A DNA stretch of 64,000 nucleotides from positions 1 through 64,000 of IMG/VR virus record IMGVR_UViG_3300029305_003259; one strand, written 5' to 3'. Shown here piece by piece: positions 1-63,300 of the stretch (positions within the stretch are counted from its first letter, which is position 1; every line of letters starts with the position of its first letter). The position numbers and the translations under genes were made by a program. The stretch comes from a virus. Lineage: Duplodnaviria; Caudoviricetes. The notes under the pieces were generated by a model. It did no database searches. It had not been told where the DNA came from and saw only the letters and a program-made list of their open reading frames with translations.

Positions 1-108
1 CTCCTCATCTTCGTCTACGCCAAGACCACAGAAGTTGCGACAGTCGTAGCCACCTTGGGCATCGAATGGGCAATAAGGGTCGGGGTTATCACAGGGATAA
101 GACTTCAT
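1..108 (-). CDS. small Cys-rich hypothetical protein, runs off the window edge
   Basis: ATG at 108 after AAAAGGAG; reads MKSYPCDNPDPYCPFDAQGGYDCRNFCG. Confidence 0.6.
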   Translation of the reverse strand, partial: MKSYPCDNPDPYCPFDAQGGYDCRNFCGLGVDEDEE

Positions 109-181
109 AATTTAAACTCCTTTCAAAGTTCATACTAAGGGGCACGAAGCTGTGCCTCATGCCCCTCGATACGAATTTTGC

Positions 182-733
182 TTAACGAATGTAGTTGCGA
201 TACTCGCCGATAGTCGAGGCGCAATCAGTAATCTCCTCAGTAAACCGAATTGCCTTAGCAACCAGAATAGTGTTGTTGGGATTACGATACTGGTAATCAG
301 TACGCTTCACCAGAGCCTTCACCTTAAAGAAGCGGTTGCAGAAATCGTAGGGATACTCCTTGAAGCAATGCCGCAGATTAGTGCAAACATGATATCCCTT
401 GGTGCCCAGATTGACATTACCCTCATAGGTATCCTCGACCTGCATCCGGTACTGCTTACCCTTGCAAATCATCTCGAAGTCAGTTGCCTTGAAGGCATCC
501 ACCCAAATCCAATCCTGCTCGACAGCCTCAAAAAAGCGGTCATCAACAGAGAACTTCTTGCCTACCTTGTTGGGATCCAGATGCTCCAGAATCTCAATCT
601 TGATGTTGTTGCCGTTCTCCTTACGAGGGAAGGTCTCGACAACCTTTGCTTTACGCAGAACGGAGTTGCCACAGACGGAGTACTCAGAGTCGGCAGTGGG
701 CAGAGGGCGAATGATAGTGTCGATAGCAAACAT
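182..733 (-). CDS. phage hypothetical protein
   Basis: 183 aa, AAAAGGAG RBS; C-terminal FKATD..MxCKGxQY...GYHVC pattern typical of a common phage family. Confidence 0.75.
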   Translation of the reverse strand: MFAIDTIIRPLPTADSEYSVCGNSVLRKAKVVETFPRKENGNNIKIEILEHLDPNKVGKKFSVDDRFFEAVEQDWIWVDAFKATDFEMICKGKQYRMQVEDTYEGNVNLGTKGYHVCTNLRHCFKEYPYDFCNRFFKVKALVKRTDYQYRNPNNTILVAKAIRFTEEITDCASTIGEYRNYIR

Positions 734-870
734 AATTTAATCTCCTTTTTGTTTTGAATTTTGTTGTTAGGAACTGGTTTCGCTTAAACTTAGTAGCGCA
801 AGGTAACCACATCCTTTCTGGAGCAATAGCACTCCATGAGGCCCATAAGATTTTATGGGCCCTAGCAATG

Positions 871-987
871 TTATGCGAATTTATTTACTTCTTTGACAGC
901 TTCCTGCAAAGTATCTGCGCTGCAAAAGAACTTTCCATCAATAAAGACTTCCCAATGGCCACGGACATTGATGTAGTTGACATTCAT
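871..987 (-). CDS. small hypothetical protein (38 aa, not in ORF track)
   Basis: MNVNYINVRGHWEVFIDGKFFCSADTLQEAVKEVNKFA; GGAAAGGA upstream. Confidence 0.65.
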   Translation of the reverse strand: MNVNYINVRGHWEVFIDGKFFCSADTLQEAVKEVNKFA

Positions 988-992
988 TTGCC

Positions 993-1190
993 TTATTCCT
1001 TTCCACTTTTAAGTCTGATTACAAAGAGGTCAAAGAATGGGTTTGCGCTTTCAATTTCATAGTCGGCACACTCAATGGGGATTTTGCGCAGCACTTCTCC
1101 AATGAATCCACAGGCAATTTCCTTTCCATCTACGAAGATGGAGATTCCTTTGTAAGGGATGTCGTTGAATTTGACTTCACGGAGTTTCAT
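993..1190 (-). CDS. hypothetical protein
   Basis: start moved to MKLREV after GAAAGGA; overlaps end of upstream gene. Confidence 0.65.
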   Translation of the reverse strand: MKLREVKFNDIPYKGISIFVDGKEIACGFIGEVLRKIPIECADYEIESANPFFDLFVIRLKSGKE

Positions 1191-1431
1191 CTGATTCATC
1201 CTTTCCATTAGAAAAAGCACCTGCCATGATAGCTTCAAACAATGATGCAGTTCGTGCCTGTGCTTCTTTAAAGGTATCATTGGACAACTTATAGTACTTT
1301 TCCTTAAATTCAAGGGCTTCTTCTAACTCTCGCTTGAGCTTGCGGTTTTCATAGACAATGTCTGCCATACCAAGAATGATTTCTTCAACGAAGAATTTCC
1401 TTTCTTCTTTATCATAAAAGTCAGCCCACAT
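1177..1431 (-). CDS. hypothetical coiled-coil protein
   Basis: AAAAGGAG RBS before MWADFYD. Confidence 0.7.
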   Translation of the reverse strand: MWADFYDKEERKFFVEEIILGMADIVYENRKLKRELEEALEFKEKYYKLSNDTFKEAQARTASLFEAIMAGAFSNGKDESDETP

Positions 1432-1436
1432 TTGGT

Positions 1437-1583
1437 TTACTCCTTTTCTAAGACCTGCTTGCCGCAGTAAGGACAATACGTCCAATTAATTGCTTCCATC
1501 AGTGGATGTTCTTTTTGCCCACAATAAGGGCATTGAGCAAAATCATCGAACATACCTGCGAGTTTCCAACCTCTTATTTCCAT
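1437..1583 (-). CDS. small zinc-ribbon protein (48 aa, not in ORF track)
   Basis: MEIRGW...CPYCGQ...CPYCGKQ; two CxxC; AAAGGGAG RBS. Confidence 0.75.
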   Translation of the reverse strand: MEIRGWKLAGMFDDFAQCPYCGQKEHPLMEAINWTYCPYCGKQVLEKE

Positions 1584-1982
1584 TTAACTCTCCCTTTCTA
1601 TTTCATCATAAGGTACAATGGTTTCCAGAAATTGTGCAAATTCCTCCTTTGTCATGAAGAAATTGGTATGGCTTATATAGATGCCATCTTCAACAGAGCA
1701 GTTAATTCTGTCATCCCACTCAATAAAGTGGATGTGCTGATTGTATCGGCTCTCTTGGAACAAAGTATCGAAGAAGTATTGGATTTCTGGTGTTCGCTTA
1801 AGCCAAAAGCTTTTACGAGTACCGTCCCTACCCTCATAGCAACAGAAGATTTCCGTTGCCTTATCTTGAGGTTTATTTTTGATTTGTTTTCCATTACGGA
1901 AGTGCAGGTGTTCCCTTGCAGCTCCAAGTGATTTTGCTTGTAAGAATGGGATGCTATCTGCATCCCTACCATTAATTTTCAT
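1584..1982 (-). CDS. hypothetical protein
   Basis: AAAGGAG RBS, abuts next gene. Confidence 0.7.
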   Translation of the reverse strand: MKINGRDADSIPFLQAKSLGAAREHLHFRNGKQIKNKPQDKATEIFCCYEGRDGTRKSFWLKRTPEIQYFFDTLFQESRYNQHIHFIEWDDRINCSVEDGIYISHTNFFMTKEEFAQFLETIVPYDEIERES

Positions 1983-2166
1983 ATTCAATCTCCTTTATAA
2001 TCATAGTATCAATTGCGGCAATTGGTATGAGCCACAATAAGTTGTACATTGAGCCTCCGAGTTCTGCAGAGCCTATTAATCCAAGGGCCACAAGGAATGA
2101 TAGGAGCAGAACTATTTCCCTACTCAAAGTAGCAGTTATCAAGGTAGATGCTGTGGCTTTCATCAA
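1972..2166 (-). CDS. small membrane protein, start uncertain
   Basis: two hydrophobic segments; fills gap in operon. Confidence 0.45.
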   Translation of the reverse strand: MMKATASTLITATLSREIVLLLSFLVALGLIGSAELGGSMYNLLWLIPIAAIDTMIIKEIEYEN

Positions 2167-2407
2167 ACTTGATTTCCTTATCTGTGATTAGTGTGCCACA
2201 GAAGTTTACAAGGACAAATGGCTCGATAGTTACGGGAGTAACCCAGTCGCCATCATCGTCGTGACGGCATTGATACATGAATTTGCCTTCAGGAATGGTA
2301 TTTTTGTCGATACGGAAGTCGTAGAATTCTCCCTCATAAATTTCGCTTCCTGCAAATGCAACTAAGTGCATGATATGTTTTTGGGCTGATTGATAACTTT
2401 CTCTCAT
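2120..2407 (-). CDS. LPD28-like (polyvalent-protein-associated) domain protein
   Basis: RIDKNTIPEGKFMYQCRHDDDGDWVTPVTIEPFVLVNFCGTLIT resembles the LPD28 pattern; AAAGGAG RBS. Confidence 0.65.
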   Translation of the reverse strand: MRESYQSAQKHIMHLVAFAGSEIYEGEFYDFRIDKNTIPEGKFMYQCRHDDDGDWVTPVTIEPFVLVNFCGTLITDKEIKFDESHSIYLDNCYFE

Positions 2408-2493
2408 AGTTATCTCCTTTCGCTGGGTATATTTGGGTTTGTGAAGCCCATAATGAAAGCCACAAAGTTTCCCTTGTGGCCTTGATATAGGTT

Positions 2494-2895
2494 TCAGTTG
2501 GTATCAATGATATAATCAAATCGGATCAAAATATCATCTTCATAATTGTTGTCGGGATTGTAGACCATGTAGCTGCAAATCACATCTCCATTTTGAATTC
2601 CCTCTACACTTGCATAGCTAATGTAGTAATCGGTATAGCCGACAATGTAGCCATCGCCGGTTTCTGCATCGGTGACTACGCCCACAACTTGCTCGATAAT
2701 GAGCTTTCCGTTGCGGCCTGCAAGATCTTCCATTGAAAGGTCAGGACTGTTGACAATTTCGATAAGGTCAAGGGAGTCGGCGTAGGCATAGTAATCCATT
2801 TCGTTTGCAGATGTCTTGGCCATGATAGCCAGAGATACCAGCAGGATTACAGAGGACACGATGATTGGGAACATGTTTCGCTTATTTATATTCAT
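2494..2895 (-). CDS. membrane-anchored/secreted hypothetical protein
   Basis: N-terminal hydrophobic helix; AAAAGGAG RBS. Confidence 0.75.
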   Translation of the reverse strand: MNINKRNMFPIIVSSVILLVSLAIMAKTSANEMDYYAYADSLDLIEIVNSPDLSMEDLAGRNGKLIIEQVVGVVTDAETGDGYIVGYTDYYISYASVEGIQNGDVICSYMVYNPDNNYEDDILIRFDYIIDTN

Positions 2896-2973
2896 TTGTA
2901 TTTCTCCTTTTATTTTGAATTATGAGCAAAGCCCACATCCAAACCCTCAAAGTTTGAGGGCTTGAGGCAGGTT

Positions 2974-3303
2974 TTACTTAATAATTTCAGACGGATTTGC
3001 CTTTTGGAGATTGCACAGGAAATCGAGAACCTCTTCGGGAGTAAGGTAGCCAACTACAATATCACAGCAGTCGCCACCATTGCTCAGGAACTGGTTTGCG
3101 TCAATCAGGTCTCCCTTGTAGATTGCCGCAACTTCGGCAGTATCAGACTGAGCATCCTTATTGCAGGAGAAATCCATATCCTTTGGAAAATGGTTGTCGC
3201 AGTAGTTACCTGCTCCCCACTGCACAGAAGCAGTGAGGCCATTTTCGAAGGTAATATGAAATCCCTTGCGCTGAGTGGACACGAATTTCTTGGACATAGA
3301 CAT
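2974..3303 (-). CDS. phage hypothetical protein
   Basis: GFHITFENGLTASVQWGAGNYC pattern common in phage proteins; start moved to 3303. Confidence 0.75.
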   Translation of the reverse strand: MSMSKKFVSTQRKGFHITFENGLTASVQWGAGNYCDNHFPKDMDFSCNKDAQSDTAEVAAIYKGDLIDANQFLSNGGDCCDIVVGYLTPEEVLDFLCNLQKANPSEIIK

Positions 3304-3456
3304 TTCCCTTTCTTTTAAATTTTGCTTATTCAATTGTCGGCACTTGATTGGTTCAGTCCAAAAACAATGTCGGTCATGCCGTTTTTCATTGCCCCATTTA
3401 CCTTTCTAAGTGCTCCATGGTGCCCATAAGGTTTCCCTTGTGGACACGAGCAACAC

Positions 3457-3795
3457 TTATTCGAACATACGAGGATAGAATTTCTCTTTGAAGTTCCAGC
3501 CATTTCCCTTTAGGAATTGGTCGATAGCTTTCACAGAAGGCGCTTCGAATTCTCCCTTGACTGGCAGGGGATTGACGGGACATTTGATTTTGCAGAAAAC
3601 CTTGGGAGCTTCGCCGTTGTGATTTTCAAAACGGAACAGGGCCATAAGCTGGATTTCCCTTTCCCTTGTATATGCCTGTATGAGGCGCTCAGAAGGAGCG
3701 CCTTGGCACATACCATAGCACATCTTATCGGTGTACAGGTAGGGAAGCAAGTTCCCTTGCTTGGTGTAGATGCAGATGACGGAATACTTGGACAT
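3457..3795 (-). CDS. hypothetical protein
   Basis: 112 aa, GAAAGGA RBS. Confidence 0.7.
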   Translation of the reverse strand: MSKYSVICIYTKQGNLLPYLYTDKMCYGMCQGAPSERLIQAYTREREIQLMALFRFENHNGEAPKVFCKIKCPVNPLPVKGEFEAPSVKAIDQFLKGNGWNFKEKFYPRMFE

Positions 3796-4015
3796 ATAAT
3801 CATTTCCTTTCTCTAATGAATTTGGGCTTCACTTGGTATCCCATAATAAGGTTCGATTGCGAATTATACGGGCAGGGCAATAGTCAGTATCTCCCGCCTC
3901 TAAGGCTGTAGCTTCGCTTTACTCTCAACTGACACGGTTATCGACAGACTTTCGTCTCCCTTGCTATGGGATTGGGATGGGGCTTTTACGGATAAACCCC
4001 TCAGAACCGTTTCGC

Positions 4016-4162
4016 TTACCAGTACTTGACATACTCACGGAACTTCATCTTTCCGTTGGTAGCCCGATATACCACATACATCAGGCCAACGAAGATGGAA
4101 TAAGGAACCACGAGAACGAGGCAAAACAGGCCTCCGAAGCAAATGGCAATCAAAGCGTCCAT
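4016..4162 (-). CDS. small membrane protein (48 aa, not in ORF track)
   Basis: MDALIAICFGGLFCLVLVVPYSIFVGLMYVVYRATNGKMKFREYVKYW; GAAAGGA RBS. Confidence 0.7.
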   Translation of the reverse strand: MDALIAICFGGLFCLVLVVPYSIFVGLMYVVYRATNGKMKFREYVKYW

Positions 4163-4177
4163 TTTTCATTTCCTTTC

Positions 4178-4588
4178 TTAAATAGCATACAATTTATCGC
4201 CACGGAAAGCTCCGCAGCACTCTACGAGACCACTCTTGATGAGTTCCTTTGTGCCATAGCGGCCAAGGATTTTCTTCATTTCCCTTTCATAGATGGTATC
4301 ACCACCATGCTCGGCAATGAGCTTGTCATACAGAACTTCGGCATAGTGGTCAAGGGCATACTGGATATGGGAATGGCACAGGTTGTTCAGGTAAACTTCG
4401 GCATTGCGATTTCCCTTAGCAATTGCTTCATAGAACTTGGTTTCGATTTCCTTTGGGAAAGGGATTTCCATTTCGGAGAAGAGCTTCTGCTTTTCCTTTA
4501 GAAGAGCAGCGTTGTAGCGCTTCTCAAGGGAAGGTGTCCAAGGCTTACCCTGGGACAGATATTCGGATTTCGCTTCTAAAATGTTCAT
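4178..4588 (-). CDS. hypothetical protein
   Basis: 136 aa, ATGA overlap with upstream gene. Confidence 0.75.
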   Translation of the reverse strand: MNILEAKSEYLSQGKPWTPSLEKRYNAALLKEKQKLFSEMEIPFPKEIETKFYEAIAKGNRNAEVYLNNLCHSHIQYALDHYAEVLYDKLIAEHGGDTIYEREMKKILGRYGTKELIKSGLVECCGAFRGDKLYAI

Positions 4589-4806
4589 GGCGTATCTCCC
4601 TTCGCATTAATTTTGTGCTGTTCTTCCTTGTCGGAAAAATAGGCAACGACAAGAGAATGAGTATGAGAGATAGCGCAACGGCTACAATCAATGCGCATTC
4701 CCTTATTGCAACAACAGTTGCAGGAATGGGCAAAAGCAGAATTCGCTTCTGCCTTGGAATTTGCGGCGTACTGATAGTTCACGCCAATGGTTTCAAATTT
4801 TGTCAT
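4585..4806 (-). CDS. Cys/His-rich small protein
   Basis: HSCNCCC...CSRC...HTH; GAGGT RBS. Confidence 0.7.
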   Translation of the reverse strand: MTKFETIGVNYQYAANSKAEANSAFAHSCNCCCNKGMRIDCSRCAISHTHSLVVAYFSDKEEQHKINAKGDTP

Positions 4807-4887
4807 GAGGATACCTCGCTTCCTATGGAATTAAAATCCATAATGAAGACCATAAGATTTCGCTTATGGGCTTGATATAGATTTCAA

Positions 4888-5157
4888 TTACAAACTACTA
4901 AATCTGAAGTTGCACAATGCTTCAATAAGCATATGGTCAACAAAGAACAAACTGCAAAATCTTTGCGCAATGGTTTCTGGTTTCGTTTCTGGCTCCCAGT
5001 ACTTTGCGTTCTTGATGGCGCAAAGCGCCCTTATTGCAATATCTTGCAAAGAAGGTTCATTAAATTGTCTTGCCAGATGGTAAGCACCACCGTAAATTTC
5101 GATAGTACGAGGCCCGAAGCATTCAGCTTCAAGGCGCTTCATTATGATATCTTCCAT
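4888..5157 (-). CDS. hypothetical protein
   Basis: AAAGGGGG RBS. Confidence 0.65.
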   Translation of the reverse strand: MEDIIMKRLEAECFGPRTIEIYGGAYHLARQFNEPSLQDIAIRALCAIKNAKYWEPETKPETIAQRFCSLFFVDHMLIEALCNFRFSSL

Positions 5158-5225
5158 AGGTTCCCCCTTTCCTACAAGTTAAACCCATGACAAGGTATCT
5201 GAGATTCAGGTACTTTGTCACGGAC

Positions 5226-5456
5226 TTAACCGATAGATGAATAAATGTTGCAGGATACAGTTGCACCATTGATGGAATAGCCAACAATGTTGACCCAGCC
5301 ATACTCATAGAGATAGTCTTCCTGCCAAGAGATTTTGGAGCAATAGATTACTCCGTTGACATTGTTGCAACGCAACTGATACCGACCGTTGGCATATTCG
5401 AGCGTTTCCACCAAGACGGTCACTTCGCCCAAATCGGGCAGATATACTGATAGCAT
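5226..5456 (-). CDS. hypothetical protein
   Basis: AAGGGGG RBS. Confidence 0.65.
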   Translation of the reverse strand: MLSVYLPDLGEVTVLVETLEYANGRYQLRCNNVNGVIYCSKISWQEDYLYEYGWVNIVGYSINGATVSCNIYSSIG

Positions 5457-5468
5457 ACCATTACCCCC

Positions 5469-5732
5469 TTAGATGAATTCGGCCAAAGAGTACAAAGTGC
5501 CCTTGTAGCCCAGTAGCGTTGGAATGTCATAAGCGATAGCATAGTCTCTGGTAAACTGGTCGCCAGTATAGTTGGCGAGAAGCATATCAAAGGCGCAGTT
5601 GATGTCCTCGATGATTGCGTCAAAGGGACGGTTGTCATGTCCAAGACACATATAGATAGTCGGACGACTGTCTATTGGTAGCTTGGCTGAGCAGTAGTAC
5701 TGCCCGTTCCTGAAGTAGAATTGTACTTCCAT
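5469..5732 (-). CDS. hypothetical protein
   Basis: start moved to MEVQF after AAGGGGGTG. Confidence 0.65.
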   Translation of the reverse strand: MEVQFYFRNGQYYCSAKLPIDSRPTIYMCLGHDNRPFDAIIEDINCAFDMLLANYTGDQFTRDYAIAYDIPTLLGYKGTLYSLAEFI

Positions 5733-5760
5733 AAAATCACCCCCTTGGTGGATAAAATGC

Positions 5761-6593
5761 GTGCCATCCCGTGTCATCTCTACAGGTCTAGCCTGTAGAG
5801 GGGAATAATCCCCAGTCCCGTGTTACTTCTTGTTGGTCTTGTTGGCCTGACGGGCAGCCTTACGGCGAGCCTTGGCTGCGTCCTTGCGAGCCTGCTCCTC
5901 GGCTTCCAGTTCTTCCCAAGTCTTGGCTTCCTGACCCTTGATAATCTGAGCCAGAGCGCACTCCATCTTGGTTGCAAAGGTGCCATACTTGGCACGAGTC
6001 TTGAACTTAGAGGCGCTATCGGTCTGCTTCTTAGCGAGCTTCAGCTCCTCTTCCTTGGCAGCGATACGCTTCTCCATGTCGGCAATCCACTCCTCGGAAG
6101 CGCCGTTGTTGGGCTTGTTGAACTCGGCCTTGAGGTTCTTCAACTGGGAGTTGATGAACTCAGCATTGCCAGTCAACTGCTTGCGGTCGAGGATAGAATA
6201 CTTGCTGAGATTGTTCAGAAGCTCCTCGGACTTGTGCAGAGCGTGACCGTTGACTTCACCCACGAGGTCAAGGATAGCCTGCAGAGACTTGAAAGCCTCG
6301 GACTTGGCGTCCTTAGTGGACTTGTCGGGGTCGATGGAAGCGATGATGGTAGCGCACTCGTACTTGTAGAAGTTGCGATGTGCGTTTTCCAGAGCAGTCT
6401 TCCAAGTTGCATAGGTGTCGATACCTACCTGACCACCGTTGATAGTGGCTTCCTTGTTGTTGGCGATGGTGCTATTGCGTACCAGAGCCTGTGCGATAAT
6501 ATTCATGTTGTTGTTCATAGTGTTACCTCTTTCCTACGGTTTGACCGTATCAAATTTTATGGGTAGACCCATAGAGATAACACGGGATAGCAC
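5761..6593 (-). repeat. 30-bp imperfect inverted repeat (5761-5790 / 6564-6593) bracketing the 231-aa gene
   Basis: 26/30 identical; all four differences form G-U pairs in the minus-strand RNA. Confidence 0.85.
5823..6518 (-). CDS. basic coiled-coil protein, first gene of the leftward operon
   Basis: 231 aa; strong AAG/GAG/AAC codon bias suggesting high expression; AAAGAGGT RBS; K/R-rich tail. Confidence 0.85.
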   Translation of the reverse strand: MNNNMNIIAQALVRNSTIANNKEATINGGQVGIDTYATWKTALENAHRNFYKYECATIIASIDPDKSTKDAKSEAFKSLQAILDLVGEVNGHALHKSEELLNNLSKYSILDRKQLTGNAEFINSQLKNLKAEFNKPNNGASEEWIADMEKRIAAKEEELKLAKKQTDSASKFKTRAKYGTFATKMECALAQIIKGQEAKTWEELEAEEQARKDAAKARRKAARQANKTNKK

Positions 6594-6773
6594 ATTTTAA
6601 TGGTGTGTCAATCGTGCGTAGTTACCCATGCGAGAATTTCACTCCCATGTGCCGAGTTAGGCCATCAGCCACACGCACACCTATAACAGAAGCCTTTCTC
6701 TGGATTGCTCCAAAGTTGCACGCTCCACCCTGACGGACAGTCTTTCAGCCTATTGCAAGGCAGGGATGTGTAT

Positions 6774-6785
6774 TTTTCAAAGAAC
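6774..6785 (-). promoter_or_regulatory. boxA-like antitermination element
   Basis: GTTCTTTGAAAA on the minus strand. Confidence 0.5.
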
Positions 6786-6831
6786 AAGTGTTCTCATCAA
6801 TCGAACATGACAATCACGCCTTGAAATATAA

Positions 6832-6880
6832 TGGTACATTCAAACCTAAAGACGGCGTTATGTGGTACATTCAAACCTAA
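6832..6880. repeat. 18-bp direct repeat TGGTACATTCAAACCTAA x2, 31-bp period
   Basis: exact copies at 6832-6849 and 6863-6880. Confidence 0.9.
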
Positions 6881-6980
6881 CGTTTTTCCGTCAAACCATT
6901 TCAAGTGATAGCATAGTTCCCCATGCAATCGGATTGTATCAAATACCAACATTTTTCAATGTCAATAAGTGATTTTTCGA

Positions 6981-7000
6981 TGTTCAATTTTCAAAGAGCG
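6981..7000 (-). promoter_or_regulatory. rRNA-leader-type boxA element
   Basis: CGCTCTTTGAAAATTGAACA, about 40 nt downstream of the leftward promoter. Confidence 0.6.
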
Positions 7001-7048
7001 ATAAACCTTGCGACTGGTTTTTGTGTCGTTGTCGCTTGGTATGGTCTT

Positions 7049-7076
7049 ATTATAGCACGTTGAAAGAAAAGCGCAA
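7049..7076 (-). promoter_or_regulatory. leftward sigma-A promoter
   Basis: TTGCGC-16 nt-TATAAT with extended -10 TG. Confidence 0.6.
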
Positions 7077-7566
7077 GTAAATAGTGATTTACTGGGGGGG
7101 TGCAAAAAACCTCGCAAACCATTGAAAATAAAGGCTTTTCTGGAAGGTAGTGAACACACACACTGATTAAAAAATCAAAAAAAATATAGTGAAAAAATAC
7201 ATGATAGATTGCCAAATAAATTAGGATTAGAAATAGCCCAAAATATATTCGAAAATCCAACAATTTATCTGCCAAAAATAGAACAAAAGTTCTAGCATAC
7301 AAATTAGTACAAACGTTCTATAAACCAAAATCCACAAGTCTAAAACTAACAAAATCAATAACATATCCCAAAATCCCCAAACACACTCCACTCTAACCAG
7401 ATACCTATAAAAAATAAAAGGCCCCGTCTACATATAACCAATACCCGGGGTACTTCCAACCAAAAAAAATAAGGCACCCATACCAAAATAAGGCCCCAAT
7501 ATATATCAAAGGCAAATATACAATCCACCGTACCAAAAACAAAAGGGGGCCCCAATAAGGGCCCCG

Positions 7567-7689
7567 TATATATATTATTATTAATATTATATTGTTATAT
7601 TGTTATGTGTCCCTCTGGCTGGACTTTTTTTCCAATGAGAGGGACATTTATTCCAAAAATTAGGACACCTTATTCCAATGAGAGGGACA
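7567..7689. repeat. AT-rich tract plus iteron-like repeats; candidate origin or operator
   Basis: TTCCAATGAGAGGGACA at 7630-7646 and 7673-7689, degenerate copy 7651-7667, inverted half-site 7608-7616. Confidence 0.6.
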
Positions 7690-7697
7690 AAACCCTC

Positions 7698-7726
7698 TTG
7701 ACAAAATAAAATTTCCATGTTATACT
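7698..7726 (+). promoter_or_regulatory. sigma-A promoter
   Basis: TTGACA-17 nt-TATACT with extended TG. Confidence 0.85.
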
Positions 7727-7755
7727 CACCATACAAAATTAATGGAGGTGATGAA

Positions 7756-8052
7756 ATGTCCAAAGAGGTATCTATTGACAAGACTGCCGACCAGCCATAT
7801 TACATGTGCTCAATAGAACATAACCGCATCGCTATGCGCAACCTCACCAAGTCGGCATATTACTTATACACATACTTTATGCAAAATCAGGATGGCTACA
7901 ATTTTACCCTGCGCCGATCCCATGCCATGTCAATTACGGGCCTTTCTAAATCTTCATATTACTTGGCCCTTCAAGAACTTATTGACAAGCACTATGTAAT
8001 AGATTGCGACGATGGCTATGAATTCTATGAACGTCCGCAAGAGAACTATTGA
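7756..8052 (+). CDS. winged-HTH DNA-binding protein (Rep/regulator-like)
   Basis: LTKSAYYLYTYF...TGLSKSSYYLALQELIDKHYV HTH pattern; GGAGGTG RBS. Confidence 0.65.
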   Translation: MSKEVSIDKTADQPYYMCSIEHNRIAMRNLTKSAYYLYTYFMQNQDGYNFTLRRSHAMSITGLSKSSYYLALQELIDKHYVIDCDDGYEFYERPQENY

Positions 8053-51484: not shown

Positions 51485-51511
51485 AGGAGCGGCTTAGTCC
51501 GCTCCTATTTT
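51485..51511 (+). terminator. intrinsic terminator
   Basis: AGGAGCGG/CCGCTCCT + ATTTT. Confidence 0.7.
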
Positions 51512-51537: not shown

Positions 51538-51822
51538 ATGATTATAAATCCTTCCTATGGCAATGGCAACGGAGACTCTTATGAAAAAGAAGAAGTTTTA
51601 TCAAATGATACAAAGGCACTGTTTGGACTAAGCGAAGAAGCTACGCCAGACGATGTTTTTAAAGCGATAGCCTCTGAAGAAAATTTTTCATGTGGATTTA
51701 TTGCTCAGGAAAGTGAACCGAGTAATACCAACTTGTTATGGATCGATACTACTGCCGAAACAGGTGGCTTAAAATATTACAATGGAAGTGCCTGGGTTCA
51801 TGTCCCTGTTGCTTATACTTAA
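51538..51822 (+). CDS. small fibre-type adaptor
   Basis: EPSNTNLLWIDT...LKYYNGSAW. Confidence 0.65.
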   Translation: MIINPSYGNGNGDSYEKEEVLSNDTKALFGLSEEATPDDVFKAIASEENFSCGFIAQESEPSNTNLLWIDTTAETGGLKYYNGSAWVHVPVAYT

Positions 51823-51847
51823 TTTTTTGGGAAAAAGGTGAAAATAA

Positions 51848-53482
51848 ATGGATAAAAGGATTAAAATAACCGAAGGATTACGAGATTATGTTGAAAGACT
51901 AAATTTCGAGGCAATCAGATATAGAGATTTACTTCACTCTGTTAGAAGAGATTCTTCTCCTATGACAGATGATGAATGGCAAAGTTCGCTCGATTATTAT
52001 AGGGAACTGAATGCTGAGGCGCAGTATTGCCTTAAAGTTGCCATGGATGAAATTTATGATATGTATAAAGATGAAATAAAAGATTCCCCTTGGCATATTA
52101 ATTTCTCTGATTGTGATCTCGTAATTGGGAGCACCTCGAGTGAGCCAATAATGATTAAAGAAGAAACTTATAACGACAAATTAAGAAGACTTTATCCGCC
52201 TGAAAAAAATGTGCCGCTTGCTATTAATGGTACATATACCAAGGACATCACATTGCAGGTTACAGACGCATGTAATATGGCTTGTACATACTGCTACCAA
52301 CATAATAAGGGAACGCACTCTATGACTTTTGATGTTGCAAAGAAGTTTATCGATATGATTTTGGATGCCGATGAACGAACAAACACATATATCACTTCTA
52401 CGAAGTGCGATGGTGCAATTATTAATTTCATAGGCGGTGAACCTTGGCTGGAAATTGATTTAATCTCCAAGGTCAGTGATTATTTTATTGGCGAAGTATT
52501 TAGACGCAAGCATCCTTGGGCTATAAAGTTTGTATTTAGTGTATGCTCAAATGGCCTCCTACATTTTGATTCAAAAGTTCAAGAGTATATGAAAAAGCAT
52601 ATTGATCATTTTGGATATAACATTTCTATCGATGGCAACAAGGCTTTACATGATTCGTGCAGAATTGATTTGACTGGCAATGGCACATATGATAGAGCCA
52701 TTGCTGGTGTTAAGGACTTTAAAGAAAATTTTGGCGGAAATATGGGCAGCAAAATGACCATTGCACCTGGTAATATTGATAAAGTATTTGATGCGGTATC
52801 TTTTATGATAGGAGATAGCGGATATAGAAATATTAATCTAAACTGTGTTTATGAGGAAGGTTGGACACTAGAGCATGCCAATACTCTTTATTGGCAATTG
52901 CATAAATTGACTGACTGGTTATATGATAATAATCTTTTACATACGACCAGATTATCCATGTTCACAGAAATGTGTGGCAAGCCTATTCCAGAAGACAATG
53001 ACAGTAATTGGTGTGGAGGAGTAGGCCTCATGTTAGCTGTTGATTATAAGGGAGATATTTTCCCATGTCTTCGTTATATGGAATCTTCTGTTGATAATAA
53101 AGTTCCTGCTTATGTTATAGGGAATATTCATTCAGGTATTAATATTGAGAAAGAACATTGTGATCGTGTAAATTGCCTCGGATGTATCACAAGAAAGTCT
53201 CAGTCAACAGATGAATGTATTAATTGTCCGATTGCAATGGGTTGTGGTTGGTGTAGTGCATATAATTACGAAGTATTTGGCACGCCAAATAAAAGAGCGA
53301 CCTATATTTGTTGCATGCATAAAGCAAGAGTTCTTGCGAATGTTTATTATTGGAGACTTAGAGGCATAGATTATCCTATGAATTGCCCAAAAGAATGGGC
53401 AATTGAAATAATAGGAGAAGAAGAATATGAAAAATTGAATTCTATGAAAGTGGGTGAAAGAAATGGGGTTAGTATCTGCTGA
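51848..53482 (+). CDS. radical SAM/SPASM peptide maturase, CXXX-repeat target type
   Basis: [22 protein letters not shown]; SPASM Cys CGGVG..PC..C..CINC..GCGWC..C; adjacent CXXX-repeat ORF. Confidence 0.9.
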
Positions 53483-54062
53483 TAGATTTAATGAACTTAA
53501 AGCTAGAGTTAAGGCTGAATGTGCTAGAAGAGCTTATGCAGATAGCGTTGCTTCTTATGGTGGCACAGATTATGACTATACTACTACACCTGCGTCTGGC
53601 ACATTAATTAAGCAAGAACATAGAGACAAAATAGCTATTCCCCTTAATGCCATAAGTGAGGATATGATTCCAATTGCTTCAGGACTTCCTGTTGTATTAG
53701 ATGAGGATTTATTATCAATGGAAGCCTTTATTACGGTGTTAGAACAAAGAAGTCCAACAGATAGCGAAGGAACAGACTGTTCAGGCGGATGTGCAGGAAT
53801 GTGTTATGGATGCCAGGGGACTTGTTATAATAATTGTTCTGGTTGTGGTAATAGTTGTAGTAATAATTGCTCTGGTGGTTGTAAAGGCGGCTGCACTAGT
53901 GATTGCGGTGGTTGCGGAGGAAGTTGCGATGCCTCTTGTGAAGGAGGATGTTTATATAGTTGTTATGACATTTGTTCCGGTTGTGGAGGCGCTTGCTCCA
54001 ACGATTGTAAGGGAAGCTGCGCTGGATGCGGCGCTACGTGTGCCTCTAGCTCAACACAATAA
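53463..54062 (+). CDS. Cys-rich CXXX-repeat protein, probable rSAM substrate
   Basis: 24 Cys at CX3/CX2 spacing in the C-terminal half; overlaps rSAM stop. Confidence 0.85.
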
Positions 54063-54084
54063 TATGTAGATATTGGAGGCATAT

Positions 54085-54636
54085 ATGAACGAGTTATATC
54101 ATGCAAAATATTTTTTATGTTTAGCAGATGCAAAGGTAAATGAATCCGTAAGGCTTAACTTTTCTTCATGTATTGATTATTCGAATTTGGTTGCATGTAA
54201 TAATATTTTTTCATTAATAATATCGACTGTTGTTGATGGTATTAAAATCGGTATTTACACTGAAAATTCAGCCAAACTAGCCATAGAGGAAGAATTTTCA
54301 AAATTAGGTTTAGAAATAATATGCGGCAATTATTCGCAATTTAAACATTTTATTAATTTAGTCGTAAATTCGTGTGCTATATCTAATTTTAATGTTCAAG
54401 ATTTTATCGGAATGTATAAATCATTTATTGAAATTGCTGACAATATGGACATGTGTTATAAGATTGACATTTATTATGCAATTTTAAATTCTATTGTTAA
54501 TTTTTCTCATATACTTGTTGATATTGAATTAACTGAAAAACTAGTAAATTATATTGAATCATTGGATGATGTTAAAATTGGCTCTTTTTCAAAAATAGTA
54601 TTATCATCATTAGATTATATAAGAAAAAATAGTTAA
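54085..54636 (+). CDS. AT-rich hypothetical protein
   Basis: GGAGG RBS; follows the CXXX gene. Confidence 0.65.
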   Translation: MNELYHAKYFLCLADAKVNESVRLNFSSCIDYSNLVACNNIFSLIISTVVDGIKIGIYTENSAKLAIEEEFSKLGLEIICGNYSQFKHFINLVVNSCAISNFNVQDFIGMYKSFIEIADNMDMCYKIDIYYAILNSIVNFSHILVDIELTEKLVNYIESLDDVKIGSFSKIVLSSLDYIRKNS

Positions 54637-55021: not shown

Positions 55022-55771
55022 ATGAATGAGAAGCAATTAAGAGACAAGCTGGTAAAGAAGGCGGTTTCTTACTTGGGCACTAAGGCAGGCAGTGCTAGAC
55101 ATAAGAATATTGTTGATACTTATAATAAAATTGTCCCACTGCCAGCTGGCTATAAGGTAAAATATACAGATCCTTGGTGCGCCACATTCGTATCATTTTG
55201 TGCTTCTGTTTGTGATATGTTAGATATCATTCCAGCAGAATGTGGATGCTCCAGACAAATTGAGCTATGGCAAAAATTGGGCAGATGGCAAGAAAGGGAT
55301 TCCTATGTGCCTCAAACTGGCGACATTATATATTTCGACTGGGACGATTCTGGTAAGGGCGACAACACTGGTTGGTCTGACCATGTAGGAATTGTTGTAT
55401 CTGTATCTGGTGGAAAAATTAAGACTATTGAGGGAAACAAAAGTAATGCAGTAGGATATAGAACTATTGCGGTTGATGGCAAATATATTCGAGGATATGG
55501 TTTGCCAGACTTTGCCTCAAAGTCAACAGAAGACACTAAGATGGACACATGCAATGTTGAATTAAATGTTCTCGCAAAAGGATGTAAGGGCGACAGCGTA
55601 AAGGCCTTGCAGATTTTGCTCAAAGGCTATGGATATTCTATTGGTAGTAGCGGCGTAGATGGAAGTTTTGGGCCTTCTACTTTGTCTGCTGTAAAGAAAT
55701 ATCAAAAAGATAAGGGATTATCTGTTGATGGGTCTGTTGGCCCAGCCACATGGAAATCATTACTTGGATAA
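55022..55771 (+). CDS. endolysin: CHAP + peptidoglycan-binding domain
   Basis: WCATFVS, HVGIV, IEGN; VK.LQ..L...DG.FG..T. Confidence 0.9.
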   Translation: MNEKQLRDKLVKKAVSYLGTKAGSARHKNIVDTYNKIVPLPAGYKVKYTDPWCATFVSFCASVCDMLDIIPAECGCSRQIELWQKLGRWQERDSYVPQTGDIIYFDWDDSGKGDNTGWSDHVGIVVSVSGGKIKTIEGNKSNAVGYRTIAVDGKYIRGYGLPDFASKSTEDTKMDTCNVELNVLAKGCKGDSVKALQILLKGYGYSIGSSGVDGSFGPSTLSAVKKYQKDKGLSVDGSVGPATWKSLLG

Positions 55772-58031: not shown

Positions 58032-58050
58032 ATAAAGGAGATGATTGATT

Positions 58051-58701
58051 ATGACAAAAATTTATCTTTCACCAAGTTCACAGCCTGAGAATAAATATGC
58101 TTATGGGAACACAGATGAACAAACGCAATGCAGAAAAATTGCAAATGCATGTGAAAAGGCGTTGAAAAGATGTGGATTTGAAGTTAGGAACGGGCAAACT
58201 GGTGATCATATAAGTAGAACTAAGGAATCTAATGCTTGGAAGGCTGATTTACATGTTGCAATTCATACGAATGCTTTTAATGGTTTGGTTAGAGGAACAA
58301 GGATGTTCTATTTTAATGAAACCGGAAATAGCTATAAAGCGTGTAAAGCAATTTATGATATTTTATCTAAAAATAGTCCAGGAACAAGTGATAATATGAC
58401 AAGGAATCAGAATTTGTACGAGGTTTATTATACTAATTGTTCTCCAGTTTATATAGAGGTAGCGTTCCATGATAATGAATATGATGCTAAATGGATTGTA
58501 CAAAATACAGTTCAAATCGGAGAGTGGATTGCTCATGGAATTTGTAATTACTATGGAGTTAAATATATTACATCTGGTACAAATTCTGTTTCTAAAACAT
58601 ATCAAGTTGTTTGTGGTTCATTTGGAGTAAAAACGAATGCGGAAAAGAGAAAACAAGATCTTGCTAAAGCAGGTTTTGATTCATTTATACAAGTTAAATA
58701 G
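58051..58701 (+). CDS. Amidase_3-family N-acetylmuramoyl-L-alanine amidase + SPOR domain
   Basis: IHTNA, YIEVAFHDN; YQV.CGSF..K.NAE. Confidence 0.88.
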   Translation: MTKIYLSPSSQPENKYAYGNTDEQTQCRKIANACEKALKRCGFEVRNGQTGDHISRTKESNAWKADLHVAIHTNAFNGLVRGTRMFYFNETGNSYKACKAIYDILSKNSPGTSDNMTRNQNLYEVYYTNCSPVYIEVAFHDNEYDAKWIVQNTVQIGEWIAHGICNYYGVKYITSGTNSVSKTYQVVCGSFGVKTNAEKRKQDLAKAGFDSFIQVK

Positions 58702-58725: not shown

Positions 58726-58742
58726 GATTGGAGGGATTTAAA

Positions 58743-59228
58743 TTGAAGATATTATCATTTGATCAAAGCACCACTAGATCAGGATATGCCATATTCATAA
58801 ACGGTAAATATGACCATAGTGGCGTTATAGATAAACATACAATAAAAGATTCAGAAGCTAGATTCAAGGAAATGTATGAAGGCATACATGATTTGATAGT
58901 TACAGAAAAACCAAATATTGTAGTTTTGGAAAATACCCAAGCACAGGGAAATAATATGGCAGTGTTTAGATTGTTGTGTCAATTACAAGGTGCAATCATG
59001 GGCATGTGTTATGCAAGAGGAATTAGATTTTGCGTGCTGGCTCCAACAATGTGGAGGCGAATTTTGCAATTTTCACAAGGGCCAAAGATAAAAAGAGAAG
59101 AACTTAAGCGGCAGAGTATGGAATATGCTAAGAGATTTAATATTGAGGACTCAGAAGATAGAGCCGAGGCAGCATGTATTGGGGCTGCTTACATTATAAA
59201 TAATGCCGAAGGCATAGATATAGAATAA
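58743..59228 (+). CDS. RuvC-like Holliday junction resolvase
   Basis: LSFDQS...GYA, VVLE, P..W, D.AEA. Confidence 0.85.
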   Translation: MKILSFDQSTTRSGYAIFINGKYDHSGVIDKHTIKDSEARFKEMYEGIHDLIVTEKPNIVVLENTQAQGNNMAVFRLLCQLQGAIMGMCYARGIRFCVLAPTMWRRILQFSQGPKIKREELKRQSMEYAKRFNIEDSEDRAEAACIGAAYIINNAEGIDIE

Positions 59229-60386: not shown

Positions 60387-63300
60387 TTGAGAGAGTTTAA
60401 ATTTAGAATAACCACAGATATATCCGACCTTGAAGCACAATTTAAGGGCGGTGCAGATGCTCTGGCTAAAATGGCCAAAGCAGCTGGTCAGGCGGAAAAT
60501 AAATTAGATTTTTTAAAAGAAACAGGAACATATTTAGATCAAATTGATGCCGCACTTAGCGAATTAAAGACAAAATACCCAGATTTGTTTAATAAAATAT
60601 TTAATAATGTTGATAAACAGATAAAAGATGCTATCGCTCCAATTAAACAAATGACAAAAGAAATGGACACATTGTTTGCGCATGTTGGTGCGCAGCTACA
60701 AGGAATGTCAAGTGGTAAATTAGATGGTAGTAGAAAAGAAATTAATCAAATAATTGTTGGCATGAAGGCTCTTGCCAATGCATTAAATGTAAAGATTGAT
60801 TTTAAAGTTTTTGAAGATATGGTTAACAACGGAGATGAAGCAAAGGTCATAGCAAATTCTATGATTGGCAGCCTTGAAAAGATTGCTAGTGCATATACTG
60901 ACATTGGCAAAACATCTTTAGAAGCTTCAAAATCTATAGATAGTATTGGTAAAAATAAAACTATAAAGGACGCTGCCGAAGATGCCAAAACTCTTAATGC
61001 GGAGTTAAAAAATACCAAAAAGGCTGCTAAAGAAGCAAAAAAAGAAGTAGAGACTCCTGTAAAGCAAAAAGATAGTGGTTCTAAGCCACAGAACGCAATG
61101 AGTTATGACGATTTGCTGAAAGCTGTAAATAAAGCCAAAGATTTATCAAAAAAAATAGATGATGGCGATGATAGTGCGTTTGATAAAATGGACTCGCTTT
61201 TAGGCTCTTTGCAGAAAAAATTCAAGCTTAATGAAGATGGCGTTGCTAGATTTGAAGAGGCAATGCAAGATTTAGATATAACCACAGAAGAAACAATGCG
61301 AAAATTGCAGACTATACTTGGTGATAAATTTCCATCTGCAATCCAAGAAAGCAAAGAGGAAGTCAAAGAATTAACCAACGCTATAAATTCTGCGGATAAA
61401 GATTTAAACAATGTAAGCGTTGCTGAGGCTAATGCAAAAGCAACAGAAGAAGCGGCGGACGCTGCGCGAAGAATTGCCGATGAAACAGAAAGGGCTAAAA
61501 ATGCTGCCTTAAAATTAGACGAAGCATTAAAAGGAGCTGGAAAAAGAACAGAGGGCGCAATTCTTTACGATTCACAGACAGGAGCATATGGTGATGCTAT
61601 AAAAGGTGAAGACCATCAGGTAAAAATACCAACTTCTGATGGTAAAAAATATGATACAGAAATGCATACTCACCCTTGGGATTTTGCCGCTCCATCTGTC
61701 GAAGATTTTGATGTATGGATTAACAATTTCGATGAATTTAAAAAGTTTGCAATTCGTGCAAATAAAGAAATATTATCTATTGATTTTTCATCCATTGATG
61801 CTGATGGTTTAAAAAACATTAGAGACCAATATGCTGTAGCAGTTCAAAAGATAGAAGAAGAATTTGGTCAATATGCAACGGATATTAACGCGATGAATGG
61901 AAAATTTGGATCATATGATGGATGGCAAAATGCAGCACAACAAGCTATGCAAAATGCTCTGAAGAATATGCTTGATCCAAAAATGTTTTCAACTATCGAT
62001 TTCCAAAAAGTTGTCGAACAATCAGGGTCTACAAAGGCAACAGTGCCTCTATCTGAACAATATGCTGGAGCAAGTGAAGAGGTTAAAAGATTAGTTAATG
62101 AACTTGCAAAGCTTGACGATCTTGATGAAACAGACGAGATTGCTGCAAAGTGGAACCATTTAGCAGAAATTGCCCCAAATATTTATAAATCAATGCGCGG
62201 AGATGCATGGGAGAATTTAAAACAAGACATTCTTTCTAATACTTCTGCTGTTGAAAATTTAGGAGAAGAAATAGATGAGGCATTAACGCTAGAAACTGGT
62301 AATCTTGAGTCAAAATTGGAGAGACTAAAGGATCTTGCCGATGAATATGGCATGCAGATTACTCAGCGAGATCGTAATACTTTAGAATTTTTAATCGACC
62401 AGGATAATGAGAAAGAATTGACTGGCGCAAAAGCAGACAGACTTTCTGAATTGCAAGACAAAATTGATGCGGCAGATGATGCGTTAATTGCATTTGAAGA
62501 ACAATACGATAAAATAATTCTAAAACTTGAAAATGGCAAAAAGGTAGAAATTCTACCTAATGATAAAGGCCTTCGTGATTTATATAAATTCATGGATGAA
62601 GGCGACGGAAGAACTTTTAATGGTATTGATGTTGCCGATGTTGAATACGTCCGAGCAGAACAGTTTGTAAGAACACAAATTGAGTCATATGAAGAATTAT
62701 GTAAAGTTGTCGAAAGATATAATGAATTGCGTCATAAAAAGGACAGAACTTCAAAAGAAAACATTGAATTTCAATCACTTCTTGACCGTATTAGAGCAAC
62801 TGAGCCAGAAAACGGCATAACAAGTCCAGATTACGATAAACGATTAATAGAATTTACTAGAATATTTAAAGAGTGGCTTTTAAATACGGATTCTCTTGCA
62901 AAATATCTTGGCATTGAAATTCCGCAAGCAGCAGTGATTGCTGAATCTGCGGTTGAAAATCTTGGACAAGAAATTAAGGAATCTTTATCTCCAGAAGCCG
63001 TAGACTCTAAGTCTGTTATGAAACAATTCCAAGATATTTGGAAACTGAAAAACGACTTAAAATATGACCTTAATTATAATGCAAAATATATTGGCGATGA
63101 TGCTGCAGTAAGCGAAGCAAAACAACAAGTTGCCGAATATGATGAAAGACTAAAACAACTTGCCGTATCTTATGTTAGCCTTGGTGGCGCAGTTGATGAT
63201 TTTAAATCTAAGGAAAAACGTGAGTTTGCAGCGGATGTTGTTAACAATTTAAACGAGCAAAATCAGCAGGCAGAAAGTCAACTCGAAGAAACAAATCAAA

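Follow-up and report, generated by a model that had tools for sequence, protein, structure and literature searches.

The window analysed here is a stretch of 64,000 nucleotides (nt), the first half of a linear virus record of 128,431 bp in IMG/VR (IMGVR_UViG_3300029305_003259, Caudoviricetes) with an estimated CheckV completeness of ~78%. It contains a cassette of four open reading frames (ORFs), all read on the plus strand, see Table 1. The second ORF (51848-53482) encodes a radical S-adenosylmethionine (rSAM) enzyme of 544 amino acids (aa) with a SPASM domain. It overlaps the gene of a cysteine-rich protein, the target, by 20 nt if that gene starts at ATG 53463 and by 29 nt if it starts at GTG 53454. 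The initial annotation of this DNA, made from the letters alone, had described these overlapping genes and the strict CX3/CX2 spacing of 24 cysteines in the target, and both the ORFs and the spacing are found as described. The cassette starts with a 94-aa adaptor ORF and ends with the gene of a helical-repeat protein (ORF 54073-54636, probable start 54085).

Table 1. Features of the cassette in the window.
Feature	Position	Strand	Remarks
94-aa adaptor ORF	51538-51822	+	Ends in the conserved fibre C-terminal motif (51691-51819, 43 residues)
Accessory (helper) domain, ~95 residues, fused to the rSAM enzyme	51848-52132	+	Putative remote TIGR04116 homologue
Radical-SAM/SPASM catalytic core	52238-53482	+	TIGR04115 family; CX3CX2C and SPASM cysteines
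Target N-domain, residues 1-105	53463-53777	+	Four-helix domain, from homologue alignment and AlphaFold
Cysteine ladder residues 106-193, short tail and stop codon	53778-54062	+	24 Cys at CX3/CX2; presumed rSAM substrate
Helical-repeat protein, 183 aa	54085-54636	+	TPR/14-3-3-like, all-alpha; AlphaFold

The enzyme belongs to the TIGR04115 family ("radical SAM peptide maturase, CXXX-repeat target family"). Residues 131-501 match model positions 1-359 with 399.7 bits (E 1.4e-119), which passes the family cut-off of 350 bits, and the family named in the initial annotation was thus the right one for the enzyme. The radical-SAM motif CX3CX2C is found at C142/146/149 and the SPASM cysteines are complete (389, 407, 457, 460, 466, 469 and 488, arranged as CX12GX4C at 389-407, CX2CX5CX2C at 457-469 and C488). 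The runner-up families all stay under their own cut-offs: PapB with 172.7 bits (cut-off 340), QhpD (TIGR03906) with 110.3 (cut-off 453), CcpM with 103.5 and the SCIFF maturase with 89.9. All four have cysteine-rich substrates, and wherever the reaction is characterised the products are cysteine thioethers. The nearest solved structure is the thioether synthase CteB (5WGG/5WHY, E 1e-15), so that PapB/freyrasin and CteB are the closest characterised systems by sequence. No characterised member of TIGR04115 itself was found in the literature searched. A hidden Markov model (HMM) of the rSAM core finds one gene only in the phage genome. Outside the window, a 182-aa ORF contains a sub-threshold radical-SAM-like match of 24.8 bits (G000:C1:89158-89343, minus strand), possibly of the activase type.

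The first 95 residues of the enzyme fall outside the TIGR04115 model. In seven of 11 phage lineages, defined as groups below 70% rSAM identity, this part is a separate gene of 94-109 aa directly upstream of the enzyme, while in the other four, including the window, it is fused to it. The TIGR04116 HMM (cut-off 50 bits) has no match in the window or in the whole record. When 25 phage helper sequences were aligned with four true TIGR04116 proteins using hhalign, a probability of 92.8% was obtained (E 4e-7, 80 of 90 columns); this four-sequence profile replaced an alignment of a single helper sequence with one TIGR04116 protein, which had reached 50% only. A terminal W-x-I/L-N/D-F...C...I/V strand is common to both groups, and the phage helper HMM matches a bacterial TIGR04116 protein (E 1.7e-6). 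Judged by these profiles, the helper appears to be a remote and diverged homologue, below the curated threshold, of the protein that TIGR04116 describes in bacteria ("CXXX repeat peptide modification system protein"). It is probably the substrate-recognition or binding module of the enzyme, by analogy with the recognition elements of RiPPs (peptides made by ribosomes and modified after translation) and with the domain-domain recognition in CrpC/CrpA, discussed below.

The target has 199 aa when the gene starts at ATG 53463, and this start is supported by the homologues and by a 199-aa database entry (P0001). At least 381 homologous clusters at 90% identity were found. The target had been proposed to carry a structured N-terminus of ~105 aa rather than a short leader, and the homologue alignment and the AlphaFold model (pLDDT, or predicted local distance difference test, ~70-86 over residues 1-100) both agree with this. 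The N-domain is helical, contains no signal peptide and is conserved over its whole length, with the motif EH..K...PLNAINS. It belongs to no Pfam, NCBIfam or PHROG family. The best structural match is the Lon N-domain (Z 7.0), and matches to the TssK baseplate protein (Z ~4.8-4.9) are within noise. A similar fold (template modelling score by query 0.66-0.69) is present at the N-terminus of Flg_new (Listeria-Bacteroides) repeat proteins of 650-770 aa; this hints at a reusable anchoring module and should be taken as a lead only.

The ladder that follows contains 24 cysteines between residues 106 and 193, and a single extra cysteine lies in the N-domain. All gaps between the ladder cysteines are either CX3 (18) or CX2 (5). 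Among 120 relatives, 2,786 of 2,858 gaps (97.5%) are of these two types, with a median of 26 cysteines. Therefore, the ladder pattern is a family trait and not a product of chance. The spacers consist mostly of G/S/T/N/D/A in the window and mostly of S, T and G in the family. Conservation in the homologue alignment is limited to about five units at the start of the ladder (TDC..SCTGLCYGCTGTC), the remainder being variable, and AlphaFold gives no confident structure for the ladder. Every ladder ORF in the family loci examined sits on an N-domain of the target type. On the same strand, a 92-aa valine-rich ORF in another frame (window 53791-54069) is a shadow of the ladder codons and no gene.

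The length of the ladder is polymorphic by whole units among near-identical phages. For example, the targets of two loci (L003:8001-8630 and L021:8001-8720) are 100% identical except for one clean in-frame indel of 30 residues, corresponding to eight cysteine units. Such variation would be expected of a spacer or a rod, whereas a defined fold or peptide product should not show it.

Some parts of the cassette resemble a bacterial set, which consists of the TIGR04115 maturase, the TIGR04114, TIGR04117 and TIGR04118 targets, the TIGR04116 partner and TIGR04119 as a second maturase. The sole bacterial-type locus that was examined in full (L002) contains a target with a twin-arginine translocation (Tat) signal, TIGR04115, TIGR04119, TIGR04116 and TatA/TatC. 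The two systems have in common the TIGR04115 enzyme, a target with a cysteine at every fourth residue and, by remote homology, a helper of ~90 aa that appears to be of the same fold class. However, the phage form has no TIGR04119: this SPASM-type maturase has no match in the 128-kb record, which is ~78% complete, and the rSAM-core HMM described above is able to detect the TIGR04119 protein of L002. Further, the phage helper has diverged beyond the reach of the TIGR04116 model and in the window is part of the enzyme itself, and the phage target carries a conserved 105-aa N-domain of cytoplasmic type where the L002 target has its Tat signal. The target of the window has no NCBIfam match at E <= 0.01, and thus matches none of the three target models, while the L003 target reaches 14.9 bits only on TIGR04117. 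Precomputed matches to PF27846 (tSAM_targ_Cxxx_rpt) exist for some relatives, but this is apparently a repeat model that does not cover the N-domain. Thus, of the TIGR04114-04119 models against which the initial annotation proposed to search, only that of the enzyme finds a match, and by these family models the phage system is not a full member of the bacterial set. The phage kit is also distinct in that it is tied to a C-terminal motif of tail fibres and, in half of the lineages, to the helical-repeat protein.

The motif ends the 94-aa ORF of the window (...NLLWIDT..TGGLKYYNGSAWVHVPVAYT-end), where it stands alone in a protein of no known family. An iterated HMM detects a motif of 44 aa in 46 of 50 loci. 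In each of them it closes the protein encoded directly upstream of the cassette, at the extreme C-terminus. The carrier proteins are 88-628 aa long, and in most lineages the carrier is a tail-fibre protein of 230-628 aa. Over their N-terminal parts, the longer carriers match tail-fibre, tail-collar-fibre and virion-structural PHROGs, with 7037, 25620 and 2163 as the tail-fibre PHROGs matched. When viral contigs were scanned with the motif only, a scan that reaches no further than its close relatives, the motif was directly followed by cassette genes in 24 of 25 loci, up to where the contig ended. The mean pairwise identity between representatives of the 11 lineages is 52% for the fibre motif and 50% for the rSAM core, compared with 41% for the target N-domain, 29% for the helper and 25% for the helical protein. 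By these alignments, the motif is as conserved as the enzyme core, and it is almost never found without the cassette.

The four core parts (fibre motif, helper, rSAM enzyme and target) occur together in 51 fetched loci from the 11 lineages. Two gene orders exist. In the first, the fibre gene with the motif is followed by the helper, the rSAM enzyme and the target, and in the second the motif protein is followed by the target, another ORF, the helper and the rSAM enzyme. In one locus (L043) the core parts are even divided between two strands. With 51 loci, 11 lineages, two orders and opposite strands in L043, the linkage must be regarded as functional and not as inherited synteny alone. The tail context also varies. 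In one group, a P2-like baseplate (gpW, J and I) precedes the fibre gene and a reverse transcriptase is found downstream; a second group is of the siphophage type with Dit and minor-tail proteins; and in the third, the 128-kb phage studied here, the cassette follows receptor-binding-type proteins. As the survey of gene neighbourhoods suggested earlier shows, the link to fibres reaches well past the window: it holds in 11 divergent lineages with three tail architectures and in either gene order, and the motif travels with the cassette. In L003 (12616-13713), and also in L004 and L005, an RVT_1 reverse transcriptase lies a few genes past the cassette and the distal tail proteins, and it may belong to a diversity-generating retroelement acting on a fibre gene.

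The bacterial genomes that contain the target belong to Oscillospiraceae, Christensenella, Clostridium, Eubacteriales and Firmicutes CAG:170, all of them anaerobic gut Clostridia. Carriers that are strict anaerobes fit an oxygen-sensitive enzyme and cross-links that survive the reducing gut. Among 300 genomes sampled from the bacterial class to which one carrier, an Oscillospiraceae metagenome-assembled genome, belongs, only three contain a true TIGR04116 protein, the marker of the bacterial form.

The last ORF of the cassette had been regarded as an orphan. This is not the case, as its family consists of ~41 representative clusters, all of 175-190 aa. AlphaFold predicts an all-alpha helical repeat (pLDDT 96.1, predicted template modelling score 0.90), and structure searches with Foldseek and VIA find no specific relative, only a generic likeness to TPR, 14-3-3 and PPR proteins. 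The gene follows the target in six of 11 lineages and is at times duplicated. In the other gene order, its place is taken by ORFs that are unrelated to it. A universal module of five genes was considered and rejected, since the ORF between target and helper in this order has no detectable relation to the 187-aa family; this leaves the four core parts. The helical protein is then a lineage-specific addition to these four, and it may serve the ladder or the assembly of the fibre as a chaperone.

We suggest that the cassette is an accessory module of the phage tail fibre, in which an appendage of the fibre is stapled by the enzyme, probably through thioethers, and we assign this reading a probability of about 0.5. 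The mechanism could be as follows; (i) the fused TIGR04116-like domain would bind the conserved N-domain of the 199-aa target, (ii) the TIGR04115 core would move along the ladder and use its 24 cysteines to form cross-links that resist reduction, most likely a thioether from each cysteine to a residue of the next spacer, (iii) the product would be a stiff rod, insensitive to redox conditions and as long as its number of CXXX units dictates, (iv) the helical-repeat protein would probably hold the unmodified ladder or aid assembly, and (v) the finished target would use its N-domain to dock on the neighbouring fibre protein, at the 44-aa motif of its C-terminus (in the window, on the 94-aa adaptor), and so join the host-recognition apparatus.

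Several observations weigh against this reading. Foldseek and VIA structure searches detect no link between the N-domain and any known fibre domain. No longer proteins with the N-domain or the ladder, and no fusions to larger fibre proteins, were found, although these searches are weak evidence. A tblastn search of the N-domain against the isolated phages in INPHARED gave no match. The genes directly 3' of the cassette in the window are lysis genes and not fibre genes. Finally, the spacers contain no conserved Asp/Glu acceptor of the PapB type, the +3 position being G in 31%, S in 25% and T in 15%, so that another acceptor or even another type of bond may be used.

That the enzyme would modify the ladder is suggested by the gene overlap, by the logic of the family and by the co-occurrence of the two genes. 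For the bonds we infer thioethers, from the nearest characterised relatives and from a precedent on a folded protein. In Methanococcus voltae, the SPASM rSAM enzyme CrpC (TIGR04463) acts on CrpA, a folded repeat protein rich in cysteines, in which thioethers link Cys to the +3 residue in motifs such as CAGM and CAVD, and recognition takes place via the N-terminal domains of substrate and enzyme (PMC13692751). As in that system, the substrate here is a folded cysteine-rich protein rather than a short peptide, and CAGM occurs literally in the ladder of the window. However, the window enzyme reaches only 72 bits on TIGR04463 (cut-off 525), the repeats of CrpA have 17 residues compared with four here, and CrpC/CrpA is cellular, not viral, and has no structural partner. 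In PapB systems, the substrates are instead short peptides with a leader and CX3D/E units, while the target of the window is a 199-aa protein with two domains. QhpD, the third-best family match, is an rSAM/SPASM enzyme that places intraprotein cysteine thioethers in a subunit retained in the final assembly, quinohemoprotein amine dehydrogenase. The difference is that its substrate QhpC has three specific cross-links and not a ladder, and that QhpC is a periplasmic enzyme subunit while a virion module is proposed here.

An alternative is that the ladder chiefly binds metal or iron-sulfur clusters, or that the chemistry of the enzyme is something other than thioether formation, giving a redox- or metal-dependent product, in the virion or not. 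Spacers that lack an acidic acceptor and have glycine at one-third of the +3 positions would agree with this, as would the lack of a confident AlphaFold structure for the ladder and of a characterised TIGR04115 member in the literature searched. However, the nearest characterised relatives (PapB, QhpD, the SCIFF maturase CteB and CrpC) all make cysteine thioethers, and a regular CX3 ladder of variable length corresponds to no known cluster-binding geometry, so we consider this alternative quite unlikely.

Docking on the fibre motif, and with it a place in the virion, is suggested by the position of the genes, the co-conservation of motif and cassette and the absence of export or cleavage functions. 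It can also be speculated that the modified ladder protein never enters the virion and is an intracellular assembly factor or scaffold for the motif-bearing fibre, which acts like a chaperone and is left behind. The target does occupy the slot of the fibre chaperone in P2-like phages, immediately behind the fibre gene. The fibre's extreme C-terminus, which is conserved, is a typical target of chaperones, and a helical-repeat partner accompanies the ladder protein. However, the costly maturation of up to ~36 cysteines by a dedicated rSAM enzyme is hard to explain for a transient chaperone, and the polymorphism in ladder length suggests the function of a spacer. Such a role is therefore unlikely in our view. 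No proteomic report of the N-domain protein in virions was found.

A stapled fibre appendage is also compatible with the earlier statement that no transporter or leader peptidase is nearby, which holds for the entire 128-kb record: it contains no Peptidase_C39 and no ABC_tran match above the cut-off, the functions that accompany PapB-type RiPP clusters. These absences bear on a third possibility, in which the cassette is a moron-type insertion in the fibre block and makes a RiPP-like product that is freed at lysis or by the lysogen and acts on competing bacteria or the host; the N-domain would then be a leader of unusual size. The enzyme family does belong to the RiPP-type maturases, bacterial relatives export their targets via Tat, and the cassette adjoins lysis genes in the window. 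On the other hand, there is no peptidase, exporter or immunity-like gene, the N-domain is conserved along its full length and not just in a short recognition stretch, and the obligatory partnership with the fibre motif in 11 lineages has no place in such a model, which we find very unlikely.

A more specific form of the fibre reading can be put forward tentatively, and we regard it as possible but doubtful. Phages that infect strictly anaerobic Clostridia of the gut would make a portion of the fibre used in host recognition from a protein synthesised on ribosomes, which a phage rSAM enzyme turns into a chain of small thioether rings. The resulting rod would be non-reducible and protease-resistant, tuned by gain and loss of CXXX units, and plugged onto a universal 44-aa socket at the end of the fibre. 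If true, this would be the first case in which an enzyme of RiPP-type machinery cross-links a virion protein covalently, and thioethers would stand in for disulfides in a reducing habitat. Radical-SAM/SPASM maturases have been studied almost only as makers of small secreted peptides, while here viruses appear to recruit the same chemistry for a structural or host-recognition protein. If confirmed, the system would provide a new principle of virion stabilisation for anoxic, reducing and protease-rich habitats, a first function for the uncharacterised TIGR04115 family, and a compact enzyme-substrate pair for placing many cross-links in a designed protein rod; the fibre motif could then be used to recognise the fibre genes of gut phages that are uncultured. 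The modular logic of socket motif, recognition domain, enzyme and ladder, together with a defined pair of genes for co-expression, makes the proposal directly testable.

The enzyme and repeat families are already curated in NCBIfam and Pfam, and what is new here is the fused helper, the partnership with the fibre motif, the helical partner, the indel polymorphism, the occurrence in genomes of anaerobic gut Clostridia and the lack of TIGR04119, leader peptidase and exporter in the phage record. No publication was found on a fibre-linked CXXX system in phages or on these enzyme and repeat families, and in the phage papers that were found rSAM genes are mentioned in passing only. A ladder system also exists in an isolated phage, the Erwinia jumbo phage Asesino (L080:4094-4893), where two small ladder ORFs are found upstream of two rSAM genes, with a "virion structural protein" as their neighbour; one is gp185, and the other is unannotated and overlaps gp186 on the opposite strand. 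Its rSAM has only ~24% identity to that of the window, and the system is cultivable.

In several loci, the rSAM gene is broken into several ORFs (L047:6329-7973, L030:9700-10850, L035:9280-10830, L053 and L054), and the target is broken as well in L035, L047 and L053. The in-frame stops in L047, L030 and L035 are almost only TAG (eight of nine in L047), and these are probably TAG-recoded gut phages with the same cassette. In one copy of the P2-like phage (L004:6669-7998), the rSAM gene is split into overlapping ORFs of 297 and 149 aa while its neighbours are intact, which could be due to a frameshift, a pseudogene or an assembly error.

In the window, the long ORFs (at least 90 aa) are nearly all on the plus strand from ~8 kb on, and this block includes the portal, virion structural proteins and a beta-helix protein. 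The initial annotation placed fibre genes on both sides of the cassette, which is correct only in part. On the 5' side, a 1370-aa receptor-binding-type protein with two DUF6273 domains and a Dit-like C-terminus is found together with a beta-helix protein. On the 3' side, the cassette is followed by a small membrane protein and a CHAP + PG_binding_1 endolysin, and only then by a 233-aa protein with a weak likeness to fibres (E ~4e-4). Farther 3' come an Amidase_3 protein and a very long ORF (>1,200 aa, 60387+), which is open at its 3' end and matches no Pfam family. The order of CHAP + PG_binding_1 (55022-55771), Amidase_3 (58045-58701) and a RuvC-like ORF (58728-59228), between the fibre genes and the ORF at 60387, is unusual for a structural block.

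A scan for promoters and terminators gave counts close to the shuffled expectation. A GC-rich palindromic hairpin of 8 bp (51485-51506) lies between the 94-aa ORF and a 327-aa gene, which are 184 nt apart, and may mark a transcription boundary where the cassette begins. The first 8 kb of the window (1-8000) have a higher G+C content (0.41-0.46, compared with ~0.34) and differ from the one-strand block after them in that both strands contain ORFs; this part could be a different module or flanking DNA.

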